Shown: positions 7,673 through 31,171, counted from the first letter of the stretch. The stretch: 39,649 nt of DNA from Gammaproteobacteria bacterium (GCA_029881775.1 JAOULY010000001.1:1-39649), one strand, 5' to 3'. A program made the numbers and translations. Notes: generated by a model not told the origin, from the letters alone.

Positions 7673-7687
7673 GTTCTTATTAACGCT

Positions 7688-10390: not shown

Positions 10391-10418
10391 GTTAAACCTC
10401 CTGGTGAAATAATCCTGT

Positions 10419-11075: not shown

Positions 11076-11098
11076 TAATGAGCGTCGCTTGATCAGCT

Positions 11099-14284: not shown

Positions 14285-14493
14285 TTGCTTCTTCCTCCTG
14301 TGCAATATTGCAGTGTCAATTATAGACAAAAATATTTTGACGCTTCACCCGGTATCGATTATTGACCTGAGTCAATATCGCTCTTGAAACCTGGTTATAT
14401 TTTAATTCACGTATTATTACCCTGTAATTATTACGGTTACATAAGAGTATAGTTTGCACCTGTGACAGCTTGCGAGTCGTTAGGGATATTAAT

Positions 14494-15531: not shown

Positions 15532-15983
15532 AGCGGCGCTTGCTATTGCTGTTTGCAGTCTTCATCTTCCAGCATACGCAGTTCGTGGGTGCGGAACAGA
15601 TCATTATGACGCGCTCCACGCTGCCGTTCCCGGAAGCCATGCTGGCGCTGCAGGAATCAATTCGTGACCACGGCTACACGGTCTCCCGTGTACAGCGGAT
15701 TGATATCGGCCTGACCGGAATGGGCTACAAGACAGATAAATACCGTATCGTATTCGCCGGCAAGATCGATGAAATACGGGAAATGACCCGGCGCTCTCCA
15801 CAGCTTGCTGCCTACCTGCCACCGAAAATTTCCATTTTTGCTGAAAGCGGGCACACGGTGCTTGTTTCCATGAACCCGGAAATTTTTGCAGAAATAGCCG
15901 GGGATGCGATCGACCCGGTTATTTTTGATCGCTGGAGCAGTGACCTGCGCTCGATATTTCACGACGTTAATACGGCCAATTAG
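15528..15983 (+). CDS. secreted DUF302-like protein
   Basis: 151 aa. ATGA start/stop overlap with the upstream gene. It has a signal peptide, and the pattern YRIVFAGK...YLPPKISIFAESGHTVLVSMNPE parallels the C-terminal domain of the upstream protein. Confidence 0.6.
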   Translation: MKRRLLLLFAVFIFQHTQFVGAEQIIMTRSTLPFPEAMLALQESIRDHGYTVSRVQRIDIGLTGMGYKTDKYRIVFAGKIDEIREMTRRSPQLAAYLPPKISIFAESGHTVLVSMNPEIFAEIAGDAIDPVIFDRWSSDLRSIFHDVNTAN

Positions 15984-16129: not shown

Positions 16130-18172
16130 CTAGCGAAGTTTATTCAGCCAGCCCTGGTTTTCATCATGTCTGTCGAGAAGTAACAGGATGTCTGTCTGCC
16201 CCGCAGCGGCCGCGATATCGCGAACACGTTCGCGCCGGTTATTCCTGATCCGCGTATCGGCGCCGGCCTGGAGCAGCATTGCAACGGTATCTGCGTGACC
16301 GTTGGCTGCAGCCAGCATCAGCGATGTTTCGCCCAGGTTATTTGCAGCATCAATTTCAGCCCCGGCCTTTAGTAATTGGCCGACAATTCCTTGCCGCCCC
16401 TTGTTTGCGGCCAGCATCAGTGATGAGTTCCCGTCGCCGGTACGGGTGTTCACGTCGGCCTGGTGTGAGATCAATTGCTTGACGATCTTCCCGTAACCTT
16501 TTTCAGTAGCATGCATCAAGACCGTGCGACTGTTGTGGTCGCTTGTCGAGACAGTGGCGCCGCTGTCGAGCAACAATCTGGTGTTTTTGTCCAGGCCGCT
16601 GCCGACTGCATACCACAGGGCGGTATGCTTGTTGTGGTCAGCCTGGTTTACACGGGCCGTGCCGGCGAGGAGCAATTTTAGTAACTTGCTATTATTGTTT
16701 TCTGCGGCCAGCATCAAAACAGTAACGCCGGACCTGTCCTGCTGATTCTGGTTGGTCTTGCGCTGTAGCAGGAGTCTGACAATATCCAGGTTGCCATCGC
16801 GCACTGCAATGCACAAGGCGCTGCACCCCTCATTATCCTGGTGGTTGATTGCTGCAGTAACAAGCAGCAGCTTTACGATTCCAGGTTCACCGGAGCGTAC
16901 GCCCCACATCAATGTGCTCGAGCCATCATCGGTCACATCAGCTTTGGCACCGGCGTCCAGCAGGAATTTGACAAGAACACCGTGTCCCTTGTGGGCTGCG
17001 AGTGATAATGCTGTGTGGCCTTCATTGTTCCTGATGTTTATATCGGTGCCGCGCTTGATGATTTCGCGGACAATCTCCTCCTGACCCCGCCATGCAGCTT
17101 CGAGCAACGGCGGCATGCCGGATGATCCGTATGTGTCCTGTTTTTTATCGTGTAATGAAAGAAGTTTGCCGGCAGATGCGGTGGATCGTTTAACGGATGC
17201 TTTCGGTATCGCATTGTGTTTCGCCAGTAATGCGAGAATATTCCTGTGGTTCTTCCTGGCTGCAATGTCTGCTGCAGTCAGGCCATCCCTGTTCGCTATG
17301 TTGAGCCTGGCGCCGTTGGCAATCAATATATCCAGTACGCGTGCATCATCCTTGCCTGCAGCGATCATGGCTGCTGAGTCGCCATTGCGATCTACCAGGT
17401 TGACGGACGCCTTGTTTCGCAGAAGTAGCCTGACGATATCGCCATGTGCGTGCTTCGTTGCGATGTGCAGTGCGCTTTCTCCGCCGTCATTCTGCGCATC
17501 CGGCAAGTGAGAGTCCAAGAGTAGCGCTTCGATTACTTTCGCATTGCCGATTTCCGCGGCCTGCATAAGTGGCGTGTTGTGATAGTCGTCACGTGCGTCG
17601 ATATTGGCGCCTGCAGCGAGCGCCTGGCGGACTTTGTTGTGGTCAGATTTTATGATGGCATGCCGCAGCAGTTCATCGAGTGTCCCGCTTGCAGCGGGCT
17701 GTGGCTCCGATTCGGATGCCGAGACCTTCTTTTGTGCCATCCTGTGACCATTGCCTGCTGCACGTTTAAACCAGTGCAGGGCGTTTTCATAACTGATGTC
17801 GGTTCCCCAGCCATTCTCATACATGACGCCGAGGTTATACTGCGCCTGTGCATGTTCCTGTCTGGCGGCCTTTTGCAGCCAGTCAAAGGCGGCTTTGTGA
17901 TTGCGCGGTACGCCACGGCCGGAGCGGTGCAGTGCTGCAAGCTGGTACTGTGCTTCCGGGTTTCCCGATTTGGCGAGTGGCACAAGTATCGCAACTGCCT
18001 TGTCCATATCACGCATGCGCACGGCGGTGTTGAAATCGCCAAGTACCTCGTTATCTGACGCTGCCGGCAAGCCGGGCGAGATGCAGGCCAGGCCCAGCGC
18101 GGCAGTAAGAGCCAGCATGCGCAGCAGCACTGTTGCGCATAGTCGCAGCTTTCCGGATTCAGGCTGTTCCAT
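16130..18172 (-). CDS. secreted Sel1-repeat plus ankyrin-repeat protein
   Basis: 680 aa. Signal-like N-terminus LRMLALTAALGLACISPGLPAAS. It has 2-3 Sel1 repeats (GNPEAQYQLAALHRSGRGVPRN..., AQAQYNLGVMYENGWG...). About 14 ankyrin repeats follow (recurrent G.T.LM.AA..G....V..LL..GA..N). Confidence 0.85.
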   Translation of the reverse strand: MEQPESGKLRLCATVLLRMLALTAALGLACISPGLPAASDNEVLGDFNTAVRMRDMDKAVAILVPLAKSGNPEAQYQLAALHRSGRGVPRNHKAAFDWLQKAARQEHAQAQYNLGVMYENGWGTDISYENALHWFKRAAGNGHRMAQKKVSASESEPQPAASGTLDELLRHAIIKSDHNKVRQALAAGANIDARDDYHNTPLMQAAEIGNAKVIEALLLDSHLPDAQNDGGESALHIATKHAHGDIVRLLLRNKASVNLVDRNGDSAAMIAAGKDDARVLDILIANGARLNIANRDGLTAADIAARKNHRNILALLAKHNAIPKASVKRSTASAGKLLSLHDKKQDTYGSSGMPPLLEAAWRGQEEIVREIIKRGTDINIRNNEGHTALSLAAHKGHGVLVKFLLDAGAKADVTDDGSSTLMWGVRSGEPGIVKLLLVTAAINHQDNEGCSALCIAVRDGNLDIVRLLLQRKTNQNQQDRSGVTVLMLAAENNNSKLLKLLLAGTARVNQADHNKHTALWYAVGSGLDKNTRLLLDSGATVSTSDHNSRTVLMHATEKGYGKIVKQLISHQADVNTRTGDGNSSLMLAANKGRQGIVGQLLKAGAEIDAANNLGETSLMLAAANGHADTVAMLLQAGADTRIRNNRRERVRDIAAAAGQTDILLLLDRHDENQGWLNKLR

Positions 18173-19472
18173 ATTTTGTCTCTACTTCGATACCGGTATT
18201 TTTCAGGAAAGGAGTGGGTAATACGCCGCCGGCACAAATGATGACAGCGTCATTATCAAGTTCGAGAATATTGCCCTGTTGTTCGATTTTCACTGTTTTG
18301 TCGCAGATTGCTTTTACATTGGATGACATGAGGATTTTCAGGTTGCCTGTTTCGCCCAGTGACGCTATGCGTTGACGGTTCTTTTCCTTTGCGCGCGAGA
18401 ATGATTCGCTTCTGTACGAGATAGTTACCGTGGTGTCTGGTAATTCGGCAATACTTGCCGCTGCCTCAAGTGCGCTGTCGCCGCCACCCACAACCAGGAC
18501 ATGTTGGTTGCGATATTGTTCCGGATCGATAAGGCGATAGACAACTTTGTTTGACTCTTCGCCGGGAACTCCAAGTGTGCGTGGCGTTCCCCTCCGGCCT
18601 ATCGCAAGCAAGACAGATGATGTCCGGTACTCGTTGCTGGACGTTTTTACAATGAAGCCGTCTTCAATACCGTCGATAGTATCCACGCGTTCGCCGTAAT
18701 TGATTTTGATGCCGGTCTTTACAATCACGTCCTGCCAGAACTCCAGTAATTCCTCTTTTGATACTTCCCTGAAATTCATTTTTCCGACGATGGGCAGCTT
18801 GATCGGCGCCGTCATGACAAGCTTGCCGCGCGGGAAGTGGGCGACGGTACCTCCCAGTGAATCCTGATCAACGGCGACGTAGTCCAGTTTGCTTTCATGT
18901 GCAGCCAGGGTGGCGGCGATCCCCGCAGGGCCTGAGCCGATTATCACTACGTCCAGGTAACCACCCGGTGACTTTCGACCAGACCTGATGATGGACTCCA
19001 TGGCCTGGCGGCCCTGTTCTGTTGCGTTCCTGATCAGGCCCATGCCGCCGAGTTCCCCGGCTATGTAAATACCCGCTACGTTGGTTTCAAAGTCCGGTGA
19101 CACCAATGGAATATCGACGCCGCGCTCGGCAGTGCCGAACACCAGGGTGATGGCATCCATCGGGCAGGCTGTCTTGCATGCGCCATGCCCGATGCAGTGG
19201 CTGGGATTGATCAACTCCGCCTTGTCACGGATCAGTCCAAGCACGTTTTTCTCAGGGCAGGCGCTGATGCAGGAACGGCAGCCAATACACGCGGTGGCGT
19301 CAATGACGGGATGCAATGAGGCGGGTTGCATGAGGCCTGCATCACGCGCTTGTTTGAGTTCCCTGTAGGCATGACGTTGCGTGCGCTGACGTTTAGCCAG
19401 GTATGTGCCCCATATGATTAAAAACAGCGCTATGTATATAAAAGTATATTTATCAAACATATACAAAATCAT
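18159..19472 (-). CDS. membrane-anchored 2x[4Fe-4S] ferredoxin-domain / FAD-NAD(P) pyridine-nucleotide-disulfide-family oxidoreductase
   Basis: 437 aa. N-terminal TM helix FIYIALFLIIWGTYLA. Two ferredoxin motifs, CIGCRSCISACP and CIGHGACKTACP. Two Rossmann motifs, VIIGSGPAG and VVGGGDSALE, in a thioredoxin-reductase-like arrangement. It overlaps the downstream ankyrin gene by 14 nt. Confidence 0.8.
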   Translation of the reverse strand: MILYMFDKYTFIYIALFLIIWGTYLAKRQRTQRHAYRELKQARDAGLMQPASLHPVIDATACIGCRSCISACPEKNVLGLIRDKAELINPSHCIGHGACKTACPMDAITLVFGTAERGVDIPLVSPDFETNVAGIYIAGELGGMGLIRNATEQGRQAMESIIRSGRKSPGGYLDVVIIGSGPAGIAATLAAHESKLDYVAVDQDSLGGTVAHFPRGKLVMTAPIKLPIVGKMNFREVSKEELLEFWQDVIVKTGIKINYGERVDTIDGIEDGFIVKTSSNEYRTSSVLLAIGRRGTPRTLGVPGEESNKVVYRLIDPEQYRNQHVLVVGGGDSALEAAASIAELPDTTVTISYRSESFSRAKEKNRQRIASLGETGNLKILMSSNVKAICDKTVKIEQQGNILELDNDAVIICAGGVLPTPFLKNTGIEVETKYGTA

Positions 19473-19860: not shown

Positions 19861-20556
19861 ATGAAGACAACGGCAGTTTTGGCTTTGATTATCCCTTTGG
19901 CGACGGTTGGTTTTTACTTGCTGATGGATGACAGGCAGTTGAATGACAGTGACCTGCACTCAGGCAGCGCTGACATGCCGCCGGCATCCTCGCCATCGCC
20001 GGTTAATGCGGTAAAGCCACTGCCAAGAGTCGAAGATATGCTGGGTAAGCTTGAGGCCAGGCTAGAGTCAGACCCGGATGATGCGAGTGGCTGGAACCTG
20101 CTTGGCAAATCCTATGAATATCTTGGCCGACCAGATGCAGCTGAAAAGGCCTTCAATCGGGCCAGGGCGCTTGGTTATTCAGATGACGCAACAAGCGTCA
20201 ATACAGGCAGGCGTATAAAAGTAATCGCCAGCATTGAACCTTCGCTGGTAGATGCCGTATCGATGACCGACACCGTTTTCGTATTTGCACGGGCCGTGAA
20301 TGGACCGCGCATACCATTAGCCACGCTAAGGAAGCAGGCCTCTGAGCTGCCTTTTGAGTTTGAGCTGGATGATTCAATGGCGGTGTCGCCGTTCGCGAAG
20401 CTATCAGATTACGAGAAAATTATTATCGGTGTGCGTGTATCGCGTAGCGGAGAAACATTCGCCAGGGAAGGTGACCTGGAAGGTTTTAGTGGGCTTGTCT
20501 CGCCAGGTGCTGCAGATGTAGTGCCTGTCATTGTCAGTCAGGCTGTCATCAGGTAG
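19861..20556 (+). CDS. CcmI/CycH-like apocytochrome c chaperone (single TM, TPR and C-terminal domain)
   Basis: Start moved to ATG 19861 (MKTTAVLALIIPLATVGFYLLM anchor). LEARLESDPDDASGWNLLGKSYEYLGRPDAAEKAF and the C-terminal TVFVFARAVNGPRIPLATLRKQASELPFEFELDDSMAV..VRVSRSG match the conserved C-terminal module of CcmI. Confidence 0.65.
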   Translation: MKTTAVLALIIPLATVGFYLLMDDRQLNDSDLHSGSADMPPASSPSPVNAVKPLPRVEDMLGKLEARLESDPDDASGWNLLGKSYEYLGRPDAAEKAFNRARALGYSDDATSVNTGRRIKVIASIEPSLVDAVSMTDTVFVFARAVNGPRIPLATLRKQASELPFEFELDDSMAVSPFAKLSDYEKIIIGVRVSRSGETFAREGDLEGFSGLVSPGAADVVPVIVSQAVIR

Positions 20557-20566
20557 TTCCATAATT

Positions 20567-21499
20567 ATGAATGCCGTTACCAGGGAAATGAATGCAGCAT
20601 CGGATGGTGATTTTGGAAATGCCGATAATGCGCAAAGGTTAAAGCGTTTGCGTGCCCTGATTGCAGGCGGGCCACGCACCCTGATGATGTATATGACTGT
20701 GATCGCCATTCTTTACGCGGGATGGAGCAGACGGGGTGATGTTTACCTCTCCCCCGAAGAAGGCCTTGGCTATGCGCTGGGTATTACTGGCGGCCTTATG
20801 ATGTTGTCATTGTTGTTGTATCCGTTACGCAAGCATAAAAAATGGGCGCGCATCCTCGGTGGTGTGCGCAACTGGTTCAGGATGCATATGGTTCTGGGTG
20901 TAATCGGGCCTGTCTGCATTCTCTACCACTGTAATTTCCAGCTGGGTTCAATGAACGGAAATGTAGCTCTCTTCAGTATGCTGCTGGTGGCATCGAGTGG
21001 CTTGATAGGTCGCTATTTTTACGGGCGTGTTCATTACGGCCTGCACGGATCTAAAGCCGATCTGGAGAATCTGGGTAGCGACGCAGCTGCACTCAGGGGC
21101 TGTATGAAATATATCTTCGAAGAATCACCGTCTATGCAGAAGAGGCTTGACGGGCTGGATGCTAAAACGCGAAATCTCCCGGATGGCTTTGTTGCCAGTT
21201 TCATACATGTCATTTACATATCAATGCTTACAAGGTGGGCCCGGTTGGCAACAGCCAGGGATTTGCGCCTTGCTATCAATGCTATACATGCGAAAAACAG
21301 GATGGACAGACAGACGCTGGGTTCTCTTGATGAGGTCAGTCGGTTCTACCTGAAAACTTACCTCGAAGCGATCAAGCGCGTAGCCGGCTTCAGCTTTTAT
21401 GAGCGGCTATTTTCACTTTGGCATTTATTGCATATGCCATTGTTCATGATGCTGCTGGTTACAGGCACCATTCATGTGCTTGCCGTGCATATGTATTGA
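20567..21499 (+). CDS. polytopic inner-membrane protein with conserved-looking intramembrane histidines (candidate b-type haem / quinone-interacting subunit)
   Basis: Start moved to ATG 20567, 10 nt after the upstream stop. Five predicted TM helices. His residues sit in helices 3 and 5 (WFRMHMVLGVIGPVCILYH; LWHLLHMPLFMMLLVTGTIHVLAVH). A soluble helical insert of about 120 aa lies between TM4 and TM5. I did not recognise a family. Confidence 0.55.
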   Translation: MNAVTREMNAASDGDFGNADNAQRLKRLRALIAGGPRTLMMYMTVIAILYAGWSRRGDVYLSPEEGLGYALGITGGLMMLSLLLYPLRKHKKWARILGGVRNWFRMHMVLGVIGPVCILYHCNFQLGSMNGNVALFSMLLVASSGLIGRYFYGRVHYGLHGSKADLENLGSDAAALRGCMKYIFEESPSMQKRLDGLDAKTRNLPDGFVASFIHVIYISMLTRWARLATARDLRLAINAIHAKNRMDRQTLGSLDEVSRFYLKTYLEAIKRVAGFSFYERLFSLWHLLHMPLFMMLLVTGTIHVLAVHMY

Positions 21500-21507
21500 T
21501 TCAGTGA

Positions 21508-23085
21508 ATGATTGCCGTAAGCATGAAACCGGTTTGTCCGTGCGTCCTTGTATTTTTTGTCACGATGTTGGCATTAACGGCAAATGTGCAGGCGCGCAGC
21601 CTTGAATCGCTGATCATGCCAGGCAAGCTGATCGAAGGGCATGCCAAGTATGAGGATGAATGTAATCAGTGCCACCGTCCGTTCAGCAAGGAAAGCCAGA
21701 ATGTTCTGTGTCTCGATTGCCATGAACAGGTTGCAGAAGATGTTGACGGCAAGAAAGGGTTTCATGGGCTCAGTCGTCTTGGCGAGTATGAATGTAGTAC
21801 ATGTCATGAAGATCACAAGGGACGGGATGCGCAGGTGATGCAATTCAGTACCGATACATTTGACCATGATTTGACTGATTACCCGTTAAAGGGGATGCAT
21901 GGTGTTGTGGTTTGTAATGCCTGTCACAAGAGCGGGGACAAGTACAGGGAAGCACCGGGCGAATGTTTTGACTGTCATGAGGCTGATGACATGCACAAGG
22001 GTAATCTCGGCAAGAAGTGTTCGGATTGCCACAGCGTCAAGGGCTGGCGGGAAGAACAGAAGTTTGAGCACGATGAAACAGACTTCAAGCTGCTTGGAAA
22101 GCATGAGGATGTCGAGTGCGACAGTTGTCATGCCAGCCAGCGTTATGAAAACACACCCATGGAATGCAGTACCTGTCACCGGTTCAATGATGTGCATGCA
22201 GGTAATTACGGCACGGACTGCGGCAACTGTCATCGTGAGGAAGGCTGGAAAAAAATCCGCTTCAATCACGACAAGACGGATTTTCCATTGACCGGGAACC
22301 ATCGCGATGTGAAATGCGATACATGTCACGGTGGTGACGTGCTGGCGGATAACCTGGGGACAGACTGCGTGTCATGTCACAAGGGTGACGACGAACACAA
22401 GGGTCAGTATGGAAAGAAGTGCGAATCCTGTCATAAGACCAGTGGCTGGGACAAGGTAAAGTTTGATCATGACAAAGAGACTGATTTCCCGCTGCGCGGC
22501 AAGCATATCGATCAGCAATGTAGCGCATGCCATCGGGGAGAACTTGGTAATGAGTCGCTGGCTAGAAAATGCATCGACTGTCACAAGGCCAATGATGTTC
22601 ATGCAGGCGAGCAGGGCGAGACATGTGATCAATGCCACGGCGAGAAAGGCTGGGCGACGAAAGTGCGTTTTGAGCATGATATGACGAGTTTTCCCCTGAT
22701 CGGCATGCATGGCGTCGCACCCTGCGAGGAATGTCATTTGTCCGCAGTGTTTTCGGATGCGCGGGCTGAATGTGATGCCTGCCATGCAGGTGATGATGTG
22801 CATGAGAAGAAGCTCGGGCCGGCTTGCGAGGCGTGTCATAACCCGAATGCATGGACATTGTGGGAATTTGATCACAATAACCGGACAGATTTCACGCTGG
22901 ACGGGAGTCACGTCGGTATCGATTGTCACGCTTGCCACAAGCAGCCCGTGAAGAAAAAGATCAAGCAGAGCGGTGCATGTGGTAGCTGCCACAGGGATGA
23001 CGATGTGCATGACGGCGGGTTCGGACGATTCTGTACGCGCTGTCATAACACGAAATCATTCGGTGCCATCGAGATAAACAGGTAG
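21508..23085 (+). CDS. periplasmic 21-haem c-type cytochrome (seven c7/c3-type trihaem modules)
   Basis: 525 aa with a signal peptide (alternative start ATG 21523). I counted 21 CxxCH motifs, spaced as 7 repeats of about 70 aa. Each repeat has the pattern F.HD.TDF.L.G.H....C..CH ... C..CH..DD.H.G..G..C..CH....W. Confidence 0.9.
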   Translation: MIAVSMKPVCPCVLVFFVTMLALTANVQARSLESLIMPGKLIEGHAKYEDECNQCHRPFSKESQNVLCLDCHEQVAEDVDGKKGFHGLSRLGEYECSTCHEDHKGRDAQVMQFSTDTFDHDLTDYPLKGMHGVVVCNACHKSGDKYREAPGECFDCHEADDMHKGNLGKKCSDCHSVKGWREEQKFEHDETDFKLLGKHEDVECDSCHASQRYENTPMECSTCHRFNDVHAGNYGTDCGNCHREEGWKKIRFNHDKTDFPLTGNHRDVKCDTCHGGDVLADNLGTDCVSCHKGDDEHKGQYGKKCESCHKTSGWDKVKFDHDKETDFPLRGKHIDQQCSACHRGELGNESLARKCIDCHKANDVHAGEQGETCDQCHGEKGWATKVRFEHDMTSFPLIGMHGVAPCEECHLSAVFSDARAECDACHAGDDVHEKKLGPACEACHNPNAWTLWEFDHNNRTDFTLDGSHVGIDCHACHKQPVKKKIKQSGACGSCHRDDDVHDGGFGRFCTRCHNTKSFGAIEINR

Positions 23086-23094
23086 GCGAAAAGC

Positions 23095-26000
23095 ATGGAT
23101 GCGCATATGCAGTGCGCTGCGAGAATCGTTATGAAAAATAGCAGGATAAACAAACGTGCACTGACAGTTTTCAGTACGGGCATCACCGCGCAGGTCATGG
23201 CGGCCTTGCTGGTCATCATGTCAGCTGTCCTGGTGAGCGTATCTGGCGAGGTTAACGCGGCGCAGCCCGCAGCAGAATCCGGGTATGTTATTCGGCTGGC
23301 ATCCTCATCGGCGCGTGATTTCTCTGCCGCCGATGTTCATGGCGCCGGGATCCATGCGGAACAGGCATTTTATTCAACCCGATTCAACAGGAGCGGTAAG
23401 CAGTGGCGCCAGTTACGCCTGGGTTTCTTCAGGACGCGGGCAGAGGCTGAATCGGTATTGAAAAAGCTGGCGAAGCACTATCCCGGCGCCCAGGTAGCCC
23501 GGGCGACATCTGCCGATATTCGCTATGCGTCCAGTGAGCCCGTGGGCGCCCCGGCAGTTGTGACTCGCCAGCCTGTGAACAAGGCCGCCAAAGCCGGGAC
23601 GTCTGCAGAAAGTATGATAACAACCACGCAGGAGCCTTCAATAACTGGCGGGTTGAGCCGGCTGTCGCCGACCAGCTGGTTTAAGCGAAACAGGGAAAAG
23701 GATGTGCCCGAAGCCGGGCAAGCCGTGCGGCCGGCAAATCAGCTTGTCAGTACGGCAGAGACGAATAGCGCGCCTGTGAAGACTGTTGATGAAGCGCCTC
23801 GCTTGTCACATAAAGTCGCTGGGCCTGTAATCCAGGAAAGTGGTGGTGCAGTTACCTTGCCTGCAGGTGCCGTGGGGAATGACGACAAGCCCCTGTTATC
23901 CATGTTTGGGAAGCTGTCACCTGCGAAATGGTTTTCCGGAAACGACCGGGCCGGCCCGGATTCCGGTAGTAAAGCCTTGCAGATTGCCGCTGTTGACTCG
24001 ACGGCTGTTGCTGCAACGGTAAAACAGCCAGCTGGAGGTTTTGACCACCTTTCTACCGGTTTCGCGCTGGACGGCGCGCATGCGGATGCGGATTGTTCCA
24101 GCTGCCATTTGCAGGGTGTCTTCGAAGGCACGCCCTCGGAGTGCAGCAACTGTCATGGCGTAGGTAGCCGGATGTCGGGTGAAACCATGTCATCGGACCA
24201 TATCAAGACCATGCCGCTATGCGAGGAATGCCATACAGCGCAACTGTGGTCGCCGTTGAGCAGGATGAATCATGATGTGGTGACCGGTAGTTGCGGTAGT
24301 TGCCATGACGGGCGGAAAGCCACCGGCAAGTCGCCGGGGCATATTCAGAGTGCTGACACCTGTGATGACTGCCACAATACCGCGACCTGGCGCGCCTCGG
24401 CATTTGATCACAGTGGTGTAGCGACGGGTAGCTGTTTCAGTTGTCATAATGGCAGTACCGCTACCGGCAAGGTTGCAAACCATGTTGCCAGCAGCAATAC
24501 CTGTGATGATTGCCACACTGTCAATGGCTGGATACCGGCGTTATTTGACCACAGTGGCGTGTCAGGTAATTGCGCGTCCTGCCACAACGGTACCACGGCT
24601 ACCGGGAGGAGTGCTGCGCATATCAGTACGACCAGCAGCTGTGAGTCGTGCCATGTTACGAGTTTATGGACGCCGGTACAGCGGCCGGATCACACGCAGG
24701 TACTGGGTACCTGCTTCAGCTGCCACAACGGCAGCACGGCATCCGGCAAGTCGGGCAGCCACATTACCAGCGGTAATACCTGCGACGATTGTCATAGCAC
24801 GGTGTCATGGACGAATGCGACGTTTGATCACAGTGGCGTAAGCGGGAATTGCGCGTCCTGCCACAACGGTACCACGGCAACCGGCAAGAACGGCACGCAC
24901 ATCCAGACCACGAACACCTGCGAGGACTGTCACAATTCGACGGTGTGGCGTCCGGTTAGCCGTGTCGATCATGCCGCAGTACTGGGTACCTGCTTCAGCT
25001 GCCACAACGGCAGCACGGCATCCGGCAAGTCGGGCAGCCACATTACCAGCGGTAATACCTGCGACGATTGTCATAGCACGGTGTCATGGACGAATGCGAC
25101 GTTTGATCACAGTGGCGTAAGCGGGAATTGCGCGTCCTGCCACAACGGTACCACGGCAACCGGCAAGAACGGCACGCACATCCAGACCACGAACACCTGC
25201 GAGGACTGTCATGGCACCAGCCTATGGCGCCCGGTCATTCGCGTCGACCATGTTGCGGTGATCGGTACCTGTTTCAGTTGCCATAACGGGTCCACGGCCA
25301 GTGGCAAGACGCCGAACCATATAAGCAGTGGCAACACCTGCGATGATTGTCACAGTACCAGCGGCTGGATCCCGGCCGTGTTCGATCACAGTACGGTGAG
25401 TGGCAGTTGTTTTTCCTGCCACAATGGTACGACGGCGACCGGCAAGAACGGCACGCATATCCAGACAACGAATCTGTGCGAGGATTGCCACAATTCGACG
25501 CTGTGGCGTCCGGTTACCCGTGTCGATCATGCCGATGTAATTGGTACCTGTTTCAGTTGCCATAACGGAACGACGGCCAGTGGAAAAACACCGAATCACG
25601 TTGCCAGTGGTAATACCTGTGATGATTGTCATAGCACCAATGGCTGGATACCGGCGGTTTTCGATCACAGCGCCGTCTCGCCAGGGACTTGCAGTACCTG
25701 TCACAACGGCAGTACGGCGACAGGCAAGCCGGGAAATCATGTGCAGACCACTGGACAGTGCGACAACTGTCACTCGACCATCGCCTGGTTACCGGCAACG
25801 TTCGATCACAACAATGTGTCGCCCGGCACCTGTTCTGGTTGTCATAACGGCAATACGGCAACCGGTAAGCCGGGCGGGCATTTCGTTACAACATTGCAAT
25901 GTGATGATTGCCATTCGGTAAATAACTGGCTATCGGTCGTCTATCAGCATGTGTCCGGCGCCTACCCGGGTGATCACAGCGGGAATCCGGTCTGTACCCA

Positions 26001-26190
26001 GTGTCATACGGCTAACAGCCAGGTCATGAACTGGCCTGCGCCAGCCTACCAGCCTGACTGTGCCGGTTGTCACGCCAGTGACTACAAGGCGGGTGTGGAC
26101 AAACACCAGAGTCTCAGCCTGGATCGTAATTGTGCCGGTTCCTGTCACCAGGCCAGTCCGGAGCACAGCGTGAACAGCAGGGAATGGTAA
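23095..26190 (+). CDS. 29-haem c-type cytochrome with N-terminal membrane anchor/signal, SPOR-like domain and low-complexity linker
   Basis: 1031 aa (alternative start ATG 23131). Hydrophobic segment ITAQVMAALLVIMSAVLVSVSG. SPOR-like domain at aa 63-142. Ala/Pro/Ser/Gly-rich linker at aa 143-333. From aa 334 to the end there are 29 CxxCH motifs plus one CAGSCH, in tandem dihaem units of the doubled-CXXCH type. Confidence 0.9.
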   Translation: MDAHMQCAARIVMKNSRINKRALTVFSTGITAQVMAALLVIMSAVLVSVSGEVNAAQPAAESGYVIRLASSSARDFSAADVHGAGIHAEQAFYSTRFNRSGKQWRQLRLGFFRTRAEAESVLKKLAKHYPGAQVARATSADIRYASSEPVGAPAVVTRQPVNKAAKAGTSAESMITTTQEPSITGGLSRLSPTSWFKRNREKDVPEAGQAVRPANQLVSTAETNSAPVKTVDEAPRLSHKVAGPVIQESGGAVTLPAGAVGNDDKPLLSMFGKLSPAKWFSGNDRAGPDSGSKALQIAAVDSTAVAATVKQPAGGFDHLSTGFALDGAHADADCSSCHLQGVFEGTPSECSNCHGVGSRMSGETMSSDHIKTMPLCEECHTAQLWSPLSRMNHDVVTGSCGSCHDGRKATGKSPGHIQSADTCDDCHNTATWRASAFDHSGVATGSCFSCHNGSTATGKVANHVASSNTCDDCHTVNGWIPALFDHSGVSGNCASCHNGTTATGRSAAHISTTSSCESCHVTSLWTPVQRPDHTQVLGTCFSCHNGSTASGKSGSHITSGNTCDDCHSTVSWTNATFDHSGVSGNCASCHNGTTATGKNGTHIQTTNTCEDCHNSTVWRPVSRVDHAAVLGTCFSCHNGSTASGKSGSHITSGNTCDDCHSTVSWTNATFDHSGVSGNCASCHNGTTATGKNGTHIQTTNTCEDCHGTSLWRPVIRVDHVAVIGTCFSCHNGSTASGKTPNHISSGNTCDDCHSTSGWIPAVFDHSTVSGSCFSCHNGTTATGKNGTHIQTTNLCEDCHNSTLWRPVTRVDHADVIGTCFSCHNGTTASGKTPNHVASGNTCDDCHSTNGWIPAVFDHSAVSPGTCSTCHNGSTATGKPGNHVQTTGQCDNCHSTIAWLPATFDHNNVSPGTCSGCHNGNTATGKPGGHFVTTLQCDDCHSVNNWLSVVYQHVSGAYPGDHSGNPVCTQCHTANSQVMNWPAPAYQPDCAGCHASDYKAGVDKHQSLSLDRNCAGSCHQASPEHSVNSREW
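23281..23520 (+). other. SPOR-like (peptidoglycan-binding) domain of the 29-haem cytochrome
   Basis: GYVIRLASSS...YSTRFNRSGKQWRQLRLGFFRTRAEAESVLKKLAKHYPGAQVA follows the SPOR pattern: an unconserved beta strand, then yRvrvGpF.s..eA..v...l....p.a.v. Confidence 0.6.
24700..25211. repeat. perfect 233-bp direct repeat (two copies, 279-bp period) inside the 29-haem gene
   Basis: 24700-24932 is base-for-base identical to 24979-25211; I checked this by reading both copies. Each copy encodes VLGTCFSCHNGSTASGKSGSHITSGNTCDDCHSTVSWTNATFDHSGVSGNCASCHNGTTATGKNGTHIQTTNTCEDCH. Confidence 0.95.
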
Positions 26191-26316
26191 TGGCTGTAGC
26201 GGCGTGTTATCGACCGGAGAAAGAGCATTACCTGGTTGCCAATGCCGTCCGGATACCGCATCGATTGCATCCGGCGTGAAGATAAACCTGTTCAATCAGC
26301 AGAAGAATTCGGGAAT

Positions 26317-28788
26317 ATGAATACACACAATCGTATTGGCAACAGCCTGGTGGCAATCTTGTTTATGCTGGCGATGTCAGCCGTTGCATCGGTTGCACAT
26401 GCGCAGATAGATGTGCTGGATGCCATTGATGTCAGCCATGCTGACGACTACTCGACTATCAGTATAAATCTGAATGTCCCCGTGCATTACAAGTCGCATG
26501 TCCCGCAGAAATCCGGTGATGTGCTGCGTATTCGCGTCGATCCGGTGCTGACCCTGGGAACTGAAAACGACATCCTGTTCGGTAATGAATTTCTCCAGTG
26601 GAGTCCGGACAAACAGGTGCCCTTGTCAGAGGTTACCTACCAGAGTTCCGGGCCATCGACAGCGACGATTATTTTGCAATTCGAGGAAAGCGTTGAATTC
26701 GAGGTGCCTAAAAGCCCGAACTCAAGGCGTCTTGTCGTCAGGGTGAAACACCCGGAAGCACATACGCGGGAGAAACGGCTGCAGTCGCTGTCCTATGCGA
26801 TCAACCTGGCATCCTCGACGACGCCGTTCACTGACGAAGAGATACCACAGGTCGATGCCATGCTCTCCTATCGCCTGTATACGACAGAATTCATGAAGAA
26901 CGGCAAGCAGTGGACGCGCCTGCGACTCGGTTTCTTTGATAATCAGCAGGAGGCGAGGAGTGTGCTTAATTCGCTGAAGGCGAATTACCCGAGGGCCTGG
27001 GTCGTGTCGGTTCCGGCGGAAGAGGTGAGTAGCTCGGCGAATTCGATTTACAGCGACCGGCGGCGCCGTGAGAAAACCATGCCGGATCAGGCGCAGCAGG
27101 CGCCTGTGCCACCCGCGTTCGATATACCGGCAGACAGGCCGGCCGGCGCTGCAGACATGGAAAAAGTCGCGGCCCTGATGAAAGAGGCCGGCCAGTTAAT
27201 GACCGACAGGTTATACGACCGGGCAATTCAGTTGTATACCAAGGTGCTCGAGTATCCCGAGAGTGAGTCTAGTCCTGCTGCCCTGGAATTTCTCGGCCTG
27301 GCGCGCGAGCGCAAGGGACAGCTGGCCCAGGCGAAATCTGTTTATGGCCAGTACCTGGAGCAGTACCCGGAAGGTGAAGATGCAGAACGGGTCCGCCAGC
27401 GGCTTGCCGGCCTGGTGACTGCAAGCAAGACACCGAAAGACCGTCTGAAATCCGCGAAATCGCGCAGCAGGACAGGTGCAGACTGGGATGTATTCGGAGG
27501 TTTTTCCCAGTTCTTCCGGCGCGATGAAAATACCACCGAGGTCAACAACGCGAACCAGACGACCCTGGTGACACAGAAGTCACTGTCGTCTGATCTTGAT
27601 ATTACCGGCCGCCTGAGAACGGCGGACTATGACATGCGGACCCGCCTGACCGGCGGTTACCTGCATGACTTTCTAAACAACGGTGATGATAGCGAATCGA
27701 CTGTCAGTTCCCTGTATTTCGATGCCAGGGACAGCAGGCGCAACCTGGGTTTGCGGTTGGGGCGGCAATCACGCAGTACCGGTGGCGTGCTCGGCCGTTT
27801 CGATGGGCTGCTGGTAGATCTGCCGGTAACACAGTCCATCGGTTTTTCGGTTGTTGGCGGTTTTCCGGTCAACTCGTCGCGGGACGGTTTCAATAACGAG
27901 AAATACTTTTACGGTGCCGGCCTGGAGTTCGAGGACTTTGCCAGAGGGTGGGATGCGAATGCGTTTCTGATTGAGCAGCAGGTGGAAAGTATTATTGACC
28001 GGCGTGCAGTGGGTGGTGAGCTTCGCTATTTCGACTCGAGCAGGTCGCTGTTTGTGCTTGCCGATTACGATATTTTCTACAATGCCCTGAACACGGCTCA
28101 AATACTCGGTAACTGGACGACAGACGACAAGACCACCTTCAATATTGTGCTCGATTACAGGAACAGCCCGATCCTGACAACCAGCAATGCCCTTCAGGGC
28201 GAGCCGGTTCTGACCACGATTGAGCAGCTGCTGACAAGCTTCACCGAAGACCAGGTCTATGGATTTGCTGAAGACCGGACGGCGAGCAGTAAACTGGCCA
28301 CGTTTGGCGTAACACGGCCGGTGAGTGAAAAATTGCAGCTCAGTGGCGATCTGACATGGTCAAAATTATCTGACACGGTAGCTTCAGGTAATGTGACTAT
28401 CCCAAATCCGGGTACAGACAACGAGTGGTTCTACAATCTCCAGCTGATAGGCAGTAATCTGCTGAAAGAAGGCGATATAACCATCCTTGGCCTGCGCTTT
28501 ATCGATGCAACTGTCTCCAATACAACATCCCTGTCGATTAATTCCCGTTACCCGGTTACTAAAGACTTTCGCGTCAATCCAAGGTTCCAGGTCGATTACA
28601 GACAAAATCAAACGGACGGCAGCGAGCAAATGATTTATCGACCGACAGCGCGGTTGACCTACAGTATCCAGCGGCGTTTCCGGCTGGAGGCCGAGCTGGG
28701 TGGTGAATGGTCGGACCGGGAGATTGTTACCGGCACGACCCAGTCAGAGAGCTACTTCGTCAACCTTGGTTACCGGGCGGATTTCTAG
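26317..28788 (+). CDS. outer-membrane protein: AMIN-like, SPOR-like and TPR segments followed by a C-terminal beta-barrel
   Basis: Start moved to ATG 26317 (MNTHNRIGNSLVAILFMLAMSAVASVAHA signal). Mature aa about 1-120 is AMIN-like (IDVSHADDYSTISINLNVPVHY...RRLVVRV). Next come a SPOR-like domain and TPR helices (YDRAIQLYTKVLEYPES...AKSVYGQYLEQYPEGEDAERV). The last roughly 440 aa has an amphipathic beta-strand pattern and ends ...YFVNLGYRADF, a typical OMP C-terminal Phe signature. Confidence 0.75.
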   Translation: MNTHNRIGNSLVAILFMLAMSAVASVAHAQIDVLDAIDVSHADDYSTISINLNVPVHYKSHVPQKSGDVLRIRVDPVLTLGTENDILFGNEFLQWSPDKQVPLSEVTYQSSGPSTATIILQFEESVEFEVPKSPNSRRLVVRVKHPEAHTREKRLQSLSYAINLASSTTPFTDEEIPQVDAMLSYRLYTTEFMKNGKQWTRLRLGFFDNQQEARSVLNSLKANYPRAWVVSVPAEEVSSSANSIYSDRRRREKTMPDQAQQAPVPPAFDIPADRPAGAADMEKVAALMKEAGQLMTDRLYDRAIQLYTKVLEYPESESSPAALEFLGLARERKGQLAQAKSVYGQYLEQYPEGEDAERVRQRLAGLVTASKTPKDRLKSAKSRSRTGADWDVFGGFSQFFRRDENTTEVNNANQTTLVTQKSLSSDLDITGRLRTADYDMRTRLTGGYLHDFLNNGDDSESTVSSLYFDARDSRRNLGLRLGRQSRSTGGVLGRFDGLLVDLPVTQSIGFSVVGGFPVNSSRDGFNNEKYFYGAGLEFEDFARGWDANAFLIEQQVESIIDRRAVGGELRYFDSSRSLFVLADYDIFYNALNTAQILGNWTTDDKTTFNIVLDYRNSPILTTSNALQGEPVLTTIEQLLTSFTEDQVYGFAEDRTASSKLATFGVTRPVSEKLQLSGDLTWSKLSDTVASGNVTIPNPGTDNEWFYNLQLIGSNLLKEGDITILGLRFIDATVSNTTSLSINSRYPVTKDFRVNPRFQVDYRQNQTDGSEQMIYRPTARLTYSIQRRFRLEAELGGEWSDREIVTGTTQSESYFVNLGYRADF
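26791..27024 (+). other. SPOR-like domain of the outer-membrane protein, paralogous to 23281-23520
   Basis: SYAINLASST...YTTEFMKNGKQWTRLRLGFFDNQQEARSVLNSLKANYPRAWVV aligns without gaps over GKQW..LRLGFF....EA.SVL..L...YP.A.V with the cytochrome's domain. Confidence 0.6.
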
Positions 28789-28892: not shown

Positions 28893-29702
28893 ATGCCTGA
28901 AAAAATCACTAAATCCTTGAATACAGCAGTCCTGCGGATAATGCGTCCGCTGGTGCGCATTATGTTGCGCAACGGAATCGCCTACGGCACGTTCGCCGGC
29001 CTGGTCAGACAGGTCTACGTGGACGTTGCTTTTGCGGAGTTTACAACCGAGGGGCGCAAGCAAACTGTATCGAGGGTGTCCGCACTGACCGGCCTCACCC
29101 GTAAAGAGGTGAAACGGTTGCTCGAGCTGGACTCAACACCCGAATCGGAAGGACAGGCCCGCTTCAGCCGGGGGGTGCGTGTTGTCAGTGGCTGGATGAA
29201 TGACAGTCAATTTCACGACAGCAAGGGCAAGCCGGCAAATTTGCCTGTTGAAGGCAAGCACAAGTCGTTTACCGCGCTGGTCAGGAAATACAGCGGCGAC
29301 ATCACCATGCGTGCAATGCTGACCATGCTGGAAGAGGGAGGCACGGTCCGGGTGAAGAATGACGCTGTTCACCTCGTCCGTCACGCGTATATACCCGGCG
29401 GGGATGATGTTGAAAAAATCGCGATACTCGGCAGTGATGTCAGTGAATTGATTGCAACGATTGACCATAACATCGTTGCTGACCCGGAAGAGTTGTGGTT
29501 TCAGCGCAAGGTATCCTACGACAACGTGGCGCCGGAACATCTCGACAAGCTCAGGAAAATCTCGGCCAGGAAGGCGCAGGCATTGCTGGAATCGCTGGAC
29601 AGGCAATATTCGGATCATGAGCTTGACGTGGAAAAAAGGCAGGGGCGTCTGGTCAGTTTCGGTATTTACTACCATGAGCACGATACGCCGGGAGAGCAGT
29701 AG
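28893..29702 (+). CDS. cytoplasmic hypothetical protein with a helix-turn-helix-like segment
   Basis: 269 aa with no signal peptide. The candidate HTH is QTVSRVSALTGLTRKEVKRLLE. An AT-rich 104-nt upstream spacer has TTGAAT-N18/19-TATATA(AT). Its stop is 2 nt before the next start. Confidence 0.55.
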   Translation: MPEKITKSLNTAVLRIMRPLVRIMLRNGIAYGTFAGLVRQVYVDVAFAEFTTEGRKQTVSRVSALTGLTRKEVKRLLELDSTPESEGQARFSRGVRVVSGWMNDSQFHDSKGKPANLPVEGKHKSFTALVRKYSGDITMRAMLTMLEEGGTVRVKNDAVHLVRHAYIPGGDDVEKIAILGSDVSELIATIDHNIVADPEELWFQRKVSYDNVAPEHLDKLRKISARKAQALLESLDRQYSDHELDVEKRQGRLVSFGIYYHEHDTPGEQ

Positions 29703-29704
29703 CG

Positions 29705-31171
29705 ATGCGATTCACTAACATCAAATTCAGCACTGTTTTCTCTGCCCTGCTTGTGTCCCTGGTGGTTGCCTGTGGCGATGAACAACTCGCCGGCGGCGGA
29801 ATCGGTGGCACCGGCATTACATCCGGCACCGTTACGGGGTTCGGCAGCGTGTTCGTGAACGGCGTTGAGTTCGACACCAGCGGTGCTGCGCGCATGGTTG
29901 ATGATGTCGCGTCCGTCAGTAATGGCTTCGACGACATTACCGTTATGAAGCAGGGGATGGTCGTCACTGTCACTGGCACGGTAAACCCGGATGGGGTGAC
30001 GGGCACGGCTACTTCGGTAGATTTCGATGAGGTTATTGAAGGCCCGATTGGTACTGTGCCGGTTGAGGATGCTGACATGATCCTGAAAACGTTCGATATC
30101 CTGGGTACCAATGTAATCGTTAACAGGAATACCACGGTGTTTGTTGATACCGACTATGTGTCGATTACGCATGATGACGTGATCGAAGTGAGTGGTTTCT
30201 TCGATGCATCCGGCAACCTGGTTGCCACGCTGGTGGACAAGGAAGGCGTTTTGTCTCCGGGTTCAACCGTAGAGGTGCATGGCGTTGTTAGCGGGTTTAA
30301 CGGTATTGATACCTTCAAGCTGGGTCCGGTGACCGTTGTCTATGACGGTATTACGGTGTTCGACAAGTTGCCGGGCACCGTGAGTGACGGACAGTTTGTT
30401 GAAGCCAGCGGCACATTGACCGGCGCGAGAATGATAAACGCTGCGCGTATCGAGCTGGAGGATGACGCGCTGATACAGGCTGGCCCGGTCAGCCTGGAAG
30501 GTATTGTCACCCGGTTTGGTTCTACGGCGGATTTCATGGTCGGCGGCCAGCAGGTCAACGCGTCTGCGGCCGTGTTCGTACCGGTAACACTGGCTGCAAC
30601 CATCGACAAGGACAGCCGCGTAGAAATCACTGGAACAGTCGCCGGGACCGTGTTGACGGCAGCAGTTGTGGAGGATCGTGGTGGTGCGGTCAAGGTCGGC
30701 GGGCGTGTCAATTCTGTCGATACGCAGTACATGACCGTGGACGTAGAGGTCGTATCGGGCGAGCCATTCGTGCGGATCAATATCAACACAAGAACCCAGC
30801 TGGAAGATGAGCTGGGAGGGCCGCAACCGTTTACGCTGTCCAGCCTGCGGCAGGGTGATGAAGTTATTATCGAGGGCTTGAGTGGTGCCGGTAACAGTGT
30901 TGATGCGAAGCAACTCAAGCGCAAGGTGCTCGACAAATATGAACTCAAGGCAATGACGCAGTCCGCAACGGGTGACAACTCATCAGGTGCTGTTACCCTG
31001 CTCGGTGTGACATTCTCGACTAACGGCTCGACCCGGTTTGAAGACAGCAATGACCAGACGTTTCCAAATGGAGGCGATGATTTCTACAGCCTGGTTCGCC
31101 CGGGAGACATCCTCGAGGTTGAAGACCACAAGCCGGTGAATGGAATTGCTGACGAGGTTGAATTGAAGTAA
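29705..31171 (+). CDS. lipoprotein built from about 6 repeated beta-rich (DUF5666-like / OB-like) modules
   Basis: 488 aa. Lipobox LVVAC-G. Modules recur, such as VEVHGVVSGFNGIDTFKLGPVTVVYDGITVF, VSLEGIVTRFGSTADFMVGGQQVNASAAVF and GTVTGFGSVFVNGVEFDTSG. Confidence 0.65.
   Translation: MRFTNIKFSTVFSALLVSLVVACGDEQLAGGGIGGTGITSGTVTGFGSVFVNGVEFDTSGAARMVDDVASVSNGFDDITVMKQGMVVTVTGTVNPDGVTGTATSVDFDEVIEGPIGTVPVEDADMILKTFDILGTNVIVNRNTTVFVDTDYVSITHDDVIEVSGFFDASGNLVATLVDKEGVLSPGSTVEVHGVVSGFNGIDTFKLGPVTVVYDGITVFDKLPGTVSDGQFVEASGTLTGARMINAARIELEDDALIQAGPVSLEGIVTRFGSTADFMVGGQQVNASAAVFVPVTLAATIDKDSRVEITGTVAGTVLTAAVVEDRGGAVKVGGRVNSVDTQYMTVDVEVVSGEPFVRININTRTQLEDELGGPQPFTLSSLRQGDEVIIEGLSGAGNSVDAKQLKRKVLDKYELKAMTQSATGDNSSGAVTLLGVTFSTNGSTRFEDSNDQTFPNGGDDFYSLVRPGDILEVEDHKPVNGIADEVELK

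Follow-up and report, generated by a model that had tools for sequence, protein, structure and literature searches.

Results

The gene cluster and its family

We analysed a 39,649-nt stretch of DNA from a gammaproteobacterium (GCA_029881775.1, JAOULY010000001.1:1-39649), called here the window, in which five co-directional genes on the + strand at 19861-28788 encode a candidate electron conduit across the cell envelope. In order, the products are a CcmI-like protein (gene 1, 19861-20556), an inner-membrane protein (gene 2, 20567-21499), a 21-haem cytochrome (gene 3, 21508-23085), a large cytochrome (gene 4, 23095-26190) and an outer-membrane barrel protein (gene 5, 26317-28788). An earlier reading of the sequence, the original prediction, had described this arrangement, and our map of open reading frames (ORFs), with that prediction's start codons, reproduced it together with the gaps of 10, 8, 9 and 126 nt. 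The predicted counts of 21 and 29 CxxCH motifs in the two cytochromes were also reproduced, with one CxxxCH in addition. The original prediction saw one component for each layer of the envelope, as in a porin-cytochrome-type conduit, and took the architecture to be unfamiliar. The conduit reading fits our data, and the same reading has been reached independently in the literature. The claim of unfamiliarity fails: judged by homology and motifs, the locus is a new member of an already described, uncharacterised family, PCC3, and not a new architecture (PMC5566968, PMC10734462).

PCC3 was introduced by He, Barco, Emerson and Roden in 2017 as a predicted envelope-spanning conduit with a porin, a membrane protein of about 300 amino acids (aa) and two multihaem cytochromes, of which one is termed 'extracellular' (median 34 haems) and the other is periplasmic (median 21) (PMC5566968). 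The membrane protein has five helices, with WX3HX13H on helices 3 and 5 and SGxxG on helix 4, and the carriers listed are Sideroxydans (Slit_0867-0870, Slit_1446-1449), Leptothrix, Amphritea atlantica and tubeworm symbionts (PMC5566968). A PCC3 cytochrome of the Riftia symbiont consists of 7 repeats of 66 aa (supplement of PMC5566968). Hoover et al. (2023) modelled PCC3 with AlphaFold2 and found it to be common in iron oxidisers (PMC10734462), and a preprint calls it 'functionally unverified' (bioRxiv 10.1101/2025.02.27.639646). The original prediction had allowed that a characterised homologous system of the same architecture might exist; PCC3 is a homologous system of that architecture, described computationally.

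How well does the window fit this family? All the defining parts, a barrel porin, a pair of large multihaem cytochromes and a membrane protein of about 300 aa, are there in the conserved order. The gene 2 protein has five helices, two copies of WX3HX13H (from aa 103 on helix 3 and aa 285 on helix 5) and SGxxG (from aa 144, on helix 4). The periplasmic PCC3 cytochrome has about 21 haems and is made of repeats, and gene 3 has 21 CxxCH in seven modules. The second PCC3 cytochrome is haem-dense and rich in S, T, A and G; in the haem region of gene 4 there is one haem per 23.5 aa, and S, T and G are the commonest residues. A direct comparison is offered by Amphritea atlantica DSM 18887 (our locus L045), whose homologs of genes 1-5 lie in the same order, with 36-54% identity. 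Its two cytochromes carry exactly 21 and 63 CxxCH, and He et al. report 63- and 21-haem cytochromes for this strain (PMC5566968). The membrane-protein motifs, the homology and haem counts of the Amphritea locus, and the seven modules of gene 3 together make membership in PCC3 secure.

Relatives of the barrel protein number at least 1077 in a metagenomic protein collection, and 360 GTDB species genomes carry a gene of this family. Our comparison set comprises 84 loci, namely the 80 best of the 360 species-genome loci and four metagenomic loci. Among these 84, genes 2-5 stand in the same order wherever the upstream flank suffices, and in 48 of the 49 loci that hold the membrane-protein gene the PCC3 gene order is kept, with the cytochrome genes directly upstream of the barrel gene. 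Gammaproteobacterial carriers are Thiohalobacter, Thiogranum, Sedimenticola, Amphritea, Woeseiaceae and Chromatiaceae, and the same synteny is found in Nitrospirota, Desulfuromonadaceae, Binatia, Nitrospinaceae and Omnitrophota. Genes 2-5 do travel together across phyla, which was a check suggested with the original prediction. A promoter scan of the locus turned up less than shuffled sequence did, and neither within the operon nor just 3' of it does the + strand show a convincing terminator, so that co-transcription of genes 1-5 is suggested only by the shortness of the gaps.

The five-helix membrane protein

Gene 2 specifies a protein of 310 aa in which we find the five hydrophobic helices and the intramembrane His residues that the original prediction described, and these His are conserved. 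The first WX3HX13H motif spans aa 103-121 (nt 20873-20929) and the second aa 285-303 (nt 21419-21475); the SGxxG motif reads SGLIG (aa 144-148), and a cytoplasmic helical domain of about 130 aa lies between helices 4 and 5. In 44 homologs H107, H121 and H289 are invariant and H303 is at least 90% conserved. The family has 2738 members and is without a Pfam model. Gene 2 has no Pfam or NCBIfam match at E <= 0.01, and a sequence comparison with the PDB gave nothing useful, the best match being LptG at E 0.34. The NCBI name for the protein is 'transcriptional regulator', a label also found on at least one related cluster (P0131) and very likely a misannotation.

A divergent flavoprotein and ankyrin pair

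Upstream of the five genes, and outside the limits set by the original prediction, two genes on the - strand at 16130-19472 are part of the conserved gene set. The first (18159-19472) is divergent from the cluster and encodes a membrane-anchored Fe-S flavoprotein of 437 aa. It begins with one helix, followed by KRQRTQR, from which one expects the bulk of the protein to lie in the cytoplasm; next are two 4Fe-4S motifs and a thioredoxin-reductase-like domain for flavin adenine dinucleotide (FAD) and NAD(P) (YpdA / TrxR-type FNR) that lacks CxxC. Homologs with 54-79% identity are present in 44 of 47 assessable loci, and in 40 of the 44 the gene is adjacent to the cluster and divergent from it. 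The second gene (16130-18172) overlaps the 3' end of the flavoprotein gene by 14 nt and encodes a secreted protein of 680 aa, with an N-terminal signal-like segment, Sel1 repeats (Pfam 1.5e-20) and about 14 ankyrin repeats (Ank_2, 8.6e-88). Of 36 assessable loci, 32 have an ankyrin homolog directly 3' of the flavoprotein gene, relocated pairs included. A terminator-like hairpin follows the ankyrin gene on the - strand (16038-16019). A role for the ankyrin protein as a symbiont effector is ruled out, since free-living members of several phyla conserve it alongside the flavoprotein. The operon boundaries of the original prediction call for revision: the CcmI-like gene is an accessory, and the divergent pair, which they omit, belongs to the conserved set.

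Natural gene fusions bear on what the flavoprotein does. A HMMER scan with the flavoprotein over 1.84 billion representative proteins gave 852 matches at E <= 1e-30, and the best 150 of these were examined. Among these 150, 41 are fusions of the flavoprotein to a PCC3-type membrane module, recognised by a hidden Markov model of the gene 2 family (E 1e-7 to 1e-25), and 38 of the 41 have two WX3HX13H motifs. Both domain orders occur, with the flavoprotein either before or after the membrane module. The odd number of helices in the module, together with the flavoprotein's own helix, would place the flavoprotein in the cytoplasm in both orders. Of four fusion genes whose context was seen, two abut multihaem cytochrome genes, and the other two contigs are too short or cut at the end; at one locus (L085) the cytochrome genes just 3' of the fusion gene carry 20 and 10 CxxCH. 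By the Rosetta-stone argument, the fusions indicate that flavoprotein and five-helix protein work as a single unit of electron transfer.

A second class of long flavoprotein homologs (P0250, P0253, P0258, P0264 and others) is without the membrane module; the three inspected (P0250, P0258, P0264) have a proline-rich linker and then a C-terminal helical-repeat domain. That the homologs of 950-1380 aa might be flavoprotein-ankyrin fusions was rejected, as phmmer finds no ankyrin similarity in them.

The two cytochromes

The gene 3 product (525 aa) is a periplasmic cytochrome with a signal peptide and seven tandem c7-type trihaem modules of about 67 aa, which Pfam Cytochrome_C7 matches in seven stretches (7.7e-30). 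Its length appears to be held constant, with exactly 21 CxxCH in the homologs of 37 of 48 loci. The large cytochrome encoded by gene 4 (1031 aa) has 29 CxxCH, and one CxxxCH at aa 1013 that may bind a further haem; like gene 3, it shows c7/c3-type repeats. When the residues of the two proteins were shuffled, the mean number of CxxCH was 0.2-0.3 and the maximum 3. The haem region of gene 4 (nt 24070-26187) contains exactly 60 His for 30 sites, and gene 3 contains 43 His for 21 sites; these counts suggest that all the haems are bis-His ligated and that gene 4 has a 30th haem. Across loci the large cytochrome carries 9-73 haems. A likely source of this variation is a tandem array inside gene 4 (24695-25670, + strand), made of 3.1-3.5 copies of a 279-bp unit (93 aa, 4 haems each) with 81-82% identity. 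Neither cytochrome has a match in the PDB by sequence at E <= 0.001.

Ahead of its haem region the gene 4 protein has all the parts that the original prediction gave it. An N-terminal hydrophobic segment (nt 23095-23259) is a signal or anchor, with a possible cleavage site between VNA and AQ. It is followed by a SPOR domain (aa 62-134, nt 23278-23496; Pfam PF05036, 23.2 bits against a cut-off of 21) and by a linker of about 190 aa rich in A, S, V, G, P and T (nt 23497-24069). The SPOR domain is a paralogue of the one in gene 5, with 38% identity (E 9e-14). SPOR domain and long linker on the large cytochrome were found only in the window and in loci L001 and L009, and are a lineage-specific trait. 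In these three the linker is disordered and otherwise divergent, and keeps two LSPxxWF motifs (nt 23662-23682 and 23914-23934 in the window), which occur in no other + strand ORF of the 84 loci. These motifs may be docking peptides for a TPR, Sel1 or ankyrin partner.

The barrel protein and its cell-wall modules

Gene 5 encodes an outer-membrane protein of 823 aa, for which the AlphaFold2 model has a mean predicted local distance difference test (pLDDT) score of 84. A signal peptide (nt 26317-26403) precedes a beta-sandwich (aa 34-144, nt 26416-26748), a SPOR domain (aa 159-243, nt 26791-27045; PF05036 3.4e-8, 34.2 bits against a cut-off of 21), a CpoB/YbgF-like TPR segment (aa 278-368, nt 27148-27420) and a C-terminal barrel modelled with 22 strands (aa 391-822, nt 27487-28782), which terminates in a conserved aromatic YRxDF. 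For the SPOR residues, the predicted secondary structure fits the beta-alpha-beta-beta-alpha-beta order of the SPOR fold. The outer-membrane barrel with SPOR-like and TPR segments is thus as the original prediction had it. Its 'AMIN-like' label has no support in the sequence (PF24837, E 0.16, 12.5 bits against a cut-off of 27); the segment so labelled is the beta-sandwich, a fold that appears in the model only.

SPOR is a septal peptidoglycan-binding module. A SPOR domain is present on 66 of 85 barrel ORFs, and the complete layout of beta-sandwich, SPOR, TPR and barrel on 53 of the 85, so that SPOR on the barrel protein is the family norm. Peptidoglycan-binding modules would then be a family trait, the binding itself being predicted from the domain. 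The peptidoglycan tether of the original prediction is in this respect sustained by Pfam for both proteins, and on the large cytochrome it is confined to the window and its two close relatives. In about 50 of the 84 loci an extra gene of 150-190 aa between the large cytochrome and barrel genes encodes the beta-sandwich domain alone, often overlapping the barrel gene (for example L045 9986-10456 and L003 738-1226). The window does not have this gene.

The CcmI-like gene

Gene 1 encodes a stand-alone protein like the C-terminal part of CcmI/CycH, with one helix, TPR and Ig_CycH. As regards the apocytochrome chaperone of the original prediction, Ig_CycH matches (5.6e-28, 97 bits), while the TPR_CcmH_CycH match is below cut-off (29.3 against 42 bits), and the single N-terminal helix differs from the two-helix membrane part of a CcmI/CycH chaperone. 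At 12 of 49 loci such a gene immediately precedes that for the membrane protein, and we class it as accessory to the cluster. At L021 and L040 the gene in that place is a full-length CcmI, about twice as long as gene 1, that closes a ccmFGHI operon, and at both loci the PCC3 cluster comes straight after this housekeeping ccmF-ccmG-ccmH-ccmI operon. Such a position suggests how a dedicated short CcmI-like gene could arise elsewhere. The stand-alone short gene is a lineage-specific addition.

Flanking genes and host

Directly downstream on the + strand are genes for a DUF6502 protein with a helix-turn-helix-like stretch (28893-29702; Pfam 3.4e-72) and for a lipoprotein with four DUF5666 repeats (29705-31171; 1.3e-26). 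This pair is found in 14 loci, in 13 of them directly 3' of the barrel gene, and may be an accessory regulator/lipoprotein pair. The window contains no tRNA gene and no Rfam family. At 9785-12583 (- strand) and 13877-15983 there are genes for a rhodanese, a PCO/ADO-type thiol dioxygenase, a sulfur-transport protein and a sulfur-globule protein, and for a dihaem cytochrome c fused to DUF302 that lies beside a second DUF302 gene. The sulfur-globule, rhodanese and sulfur-transport genes, with a phosphoribulokinase gene also in the window, make a sulfur-oxidising autotroph plausible as the host, as was originally proposed. A sucrose cluster (3785-9649), comprising a fused sucrose-phosphate synthase/phosphatase, a second phosphatase, a PfkB kinase and an amylosucrase-like alpha-amylase, probably serves compatible-solute or storage metabolism.

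Discussion

Relation to other electron-transfer systems

The logic of the MtrCAB, MtoAB and PioAB systems, in which a periplasmic multihaem cytochrome, an outer-membrane barrel and a distal cytochrome form a chain, is like that of the present locus. The parts are different. Against the MtrA/DmsE decahaem family (TIGR03508, cut-off 192 bits) gene 4 scores 117 bits and gene 3 scores 19. MtrB and PioB have 26 strands, compared with 22 in the gene 5 model; the gene 5 barrel region has no match in Pfam or NCBIfam, to MtrB/PioB or to any other family, and there is no MtrB among the top 50 Foldseek matches of gene 5. Furthermore, the distal cytochrome here is not a lipoprotein and the inner-membrane partner does not resemble CymA. 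Cyc2, a fused monohaem cytochrome-porin, is ruled out, as gene 5 has no CxxCH and a single Cys. No homology to OmaB, OmbB or OmcB of the Geobacter Pcc/Ext systems was detected, and on family scores membership in MtrCAB, Cyc2 or Geobacter Pcc is ruled out. The gene 3 cytochrome resembles the c7-polymer nanowire cytochromes of Geobacter (GSU1996 type) in being a chain of trihaem c7 modules, with seven modules where those have four, and it falls below the cut-off of NCBIfam nanowire_3heme (24.6 against 40 bits).

Two further comparisons concern the inner membrane. PCC4 has a five-helix membrane protein with the same motifs as that of PCC3, and in its subgroup II an Fe-S protein gene adjoins the membrane-protein gene, sometimes annotated as fused to it (PMC5566968). 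This pairing parallels that of flavoprotein and membrane protein here. PCC4 differs in its periplasmic cytochromes, which are three in number and small (4, 5 and 10 haems), and in lacking a large distal one, and the PCC4 and PCC3 membrane-protein groups have no significant overall sequence similarity. The second comparison is with NOX, FRE and MsrQ, the ferric-reductase-domain (FRD) superfamily. The gene 2 protein is like these in having two His pairs 13 residues apart on two helices, fit for two stacked b haems, and in a predicted cytoplasmic supply of electrons from flavin and NAD(P)H, for which fused and split forms both exist in nature. The differences are that NOX, FRE and MsrQ have six helices where gene 2 has five, that their dehydrogenase is of the FNR type where the flavoprotein here is TrxR-like with two 4Fe-4S clusters, and that no structural match for gene 2 was obtained. 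There is no Pfam Ferric_reduct match for gene 2; its His spacing, its conservation and the flavoprotein fusions fit the FRD superfamily.

A model for the conduit

Starting from the PCC3 homology, the synteny, the motifs, the domain architecture and the natural fusions, we consider it rather probable that the locus encodes a PCC3-type conduit across the whole Gram-negative envelope, with entry through an NAD(P)H-flavoprotein and a barrel pinned to peptidoglycan. From these same observations we infer how cofactors are bound and which proteins touch. At the cytoplasmic face, the flavoprotein (18159-19472) would exchange electrons with NAD(P)H through FAD and two [4Fe-4S] clusters, and would pass them to two stacked b haems in the gene 2 protein, for which we propose H107 and H289 as ligands on the inner side and H121 and H303 on the outer side. 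Flavoprotein and gene 2 protein would then constitute a split NOX/ferric-reductase-like unit. A rod of fixed length with 21 haems, about 20 nm long by analogy with c7-polymer cytochromes, would span the periplasm. The 22-strand barrel would be the outer-membrane passage, and its SPOR, beta-sandwich and TPR segments would pin it to peptidoglycan. The all-bis-His cytochrome of variable length, with 29-30 haems here, would be the distal wire or store, in this lineage itself tethered to peptidoglycan through a SPOR domain of its own and the linker of about 190 aa. For the secreted Sel1/ankyrin protein, a part in scaffolding or assembly within the periplasm is probable, and the CcmI-like protein is probably an optional apocytochrome chaperone. 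Might the peptidoglycan modules also target the machine to the septum or a pole? It is a thought that the SPOR domains invite.

In which direction would electrons flow? Inward flow to NAD(P)+ would need a donor of very low potential. Outward flow is the likelier, as electrons that leave through a transmembrane dihaem move with the membrane potential. Tentatively, and as a possibility short of an expectation, we suggest that PCC3 is a quinone-independent, envelope-spanning analogue of the NADPH oxidases that exports electrons in hundreds of species of several phyla. If this is true, PCC3 could serve redox balancing, the reduction of extracellular acceptors in anaerobic sulfur metabolism, or the production of extracellular superoxide.

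A number of observations weigh against this model or parts of it. The function of PCC3 is a predicted one, known computationally. The dihaem assignment of gene 2 comes from motifs; AlphaFold2 modelled the protein with mediocre confidence (pLDDT 71), Foldseek gave no PDB match for it below E 0.1, and cytochrome b561 appeared only at a probability of about 0.2, so that an FRD-like fold is not confirmed. Foldseek matches of the barrel protein are to generic porins, ushers and AlgE only, not to MtrB, and with TM-scores of about 0.5 or less they are uninformative on function. For the flavoprotein, a YpdA-type thiol-disulfide reductase is another possible identity, and the co-conservation of the flavoprotein and ankyrin genes was established on the 80 best of 360 genomes, a set outside which the betaproteobacterial archetypes lie. 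For the large cytochrome, exposure at the cell surface is something that we infer; the gene 4 product has no lipobox, unlike MtrC, and its SPOR domain makes the N-terminus at least periplasmic, which leaves extracellular exposure uncertain. Its haem domain would either pass through the barrel on the tether of the linker (about 190 aa) or stay in the periplasm as a store.

Expression data from Sideroxydans ES-1 are also unfavourable. Both PCC3 clusters were down-regulated on Fe(II) compared with thiosulfate, and the authors concluded that neither takes part in Fe(II) oxidation under the conditions that they used (PMC8788666). With magnetite, detection failed for most of the proteins of one cluster; those of Slit_1446-1449 were at similar levels in all samples, except that the predicted extracellular cytochrome was not detected (PMC12016527).

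Alternative readings

The model in the literature makes the five-helix protein a cytochrome-b-like quinol/quinone oxidoreductase that carries electrons from extracellular Fe(II) or another donor to the quinone pool. It draws on HX13H motifs that are common to cytochrome b and ferric-reductase domains (PMC5566968), and on the frequency of PCC3 in iron oxidisers (PMC10734462). The flavoprotein says otherwise, since its fusions and near-universal adjacency point to a cytoplasmic partner and favour a link to NAD(P)H or another cytoplasmic carrier over the quinone link of 2017. No quinone-site motif was identified, all haems here are apparently bis-His, most of the carriers that we found are not known iron oxidisers, and the down-regulation in ES-1 on Fe(II) is hard to square with an iron-oxidising role. 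On balance we regard the quinone-linked model as unlikely. Is PCC3 instead a periplasmic electron store, a capacitor for sulfur oxidation or redox balance in which the barrel protein is an envelope anchor and nothing is exposed outside? The SPOR domains of genes 4 and 5 would bind a periplasmic polymer, the large cytochrome has neither lipobox nor secretion signature and has a highly variable number of haems, as would be expected of storage capacity, and the missing 'extracellular' cytochrome of the ES-1 proteomes is in keeping with this (PMC12016527). A store would hardly need a dedicated 22-strand barrel strictly syntenic with the cytochromes across phyla; moreover, the large cytochrome has no SPOR domain in most loci, and the fixed 21-haem length of the first cytochrome suggests that it spans a distance. 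We think the store, too, unlikely, and rather more so.

The barrel/TPR/SPOR protein might also act independently of the cytochromes, in polysaccharide export, like AlgE-AlgK, PelB and PgaA, or in tethering the envelope at the division site. AlgE and PelBC are among its Foldseek matches, its TPR segment resembles CpoB/YbgF and BamD, and septal peptidoglycan binding is the established property of SPOR. The constant position of the cytochrome genes directly upstream of the barrel gene, with a single exception among the loci that hold the membrane-protein gene, speaks for a joint function, and the cluster contains no glycosyltransferase or export genes; an independent barrel protein is therefore very improbable. 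Of these readings we retain the flavoprotein-fed, envelope-spanning conduit.

What the comparison adds to PCC3

The PCC3 papers describe four genes and a quinone link; here there are, in addition, the flavoprotein and ankyrin pair, the CcmI-like gene, and the SPOR domain and linker on the large cytochrome. Hoover et al. make no mention of peptidoglycan and no relevant one of SPOR (PMC10734462), and He et al. do not mention TPR, ankyrin, Sel1, ferredoxin, FAD, 4Fe-4S or thioredoxin reductase (PMC5566968). The combination of a SPOR domain with a multihaem cytochrome was not found in the literature searched. New here are the extended gene set, the fusion evidence for flavoprotein-coupled entry, and the peptidoglycan modules as a family trait.

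PCC3 is among the most widespread of the electron conduits known from prediction, its barrel family alone being found in 360 species genomes and comprising over 1000 protein clusters. As to its role in sulfur and iron oxidisers, the Sideroxydans expression data do not fit iron oxidation. Amphritea atlantica DSM 18887, which is cultured and has a complete cluster and the flavoprotein gene (its 5' end cut by the edge of our locus), is a possible model. The window itself adds nothing categorically new to the family, and it is the comparative work that gives three handles on it. The flavoprotein partner, for which natural fusions speak, alters both the energetics that one would predict and the direction in which electrons probably flow. 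The ankyrin/Sel1 protein, conserved and periplasmic, offers a candidate for a scaffold or an assembly factor. Finally, the peptidoglycan-binding modules predict where in the envelope the complex would be located and how rigidly it would be held.

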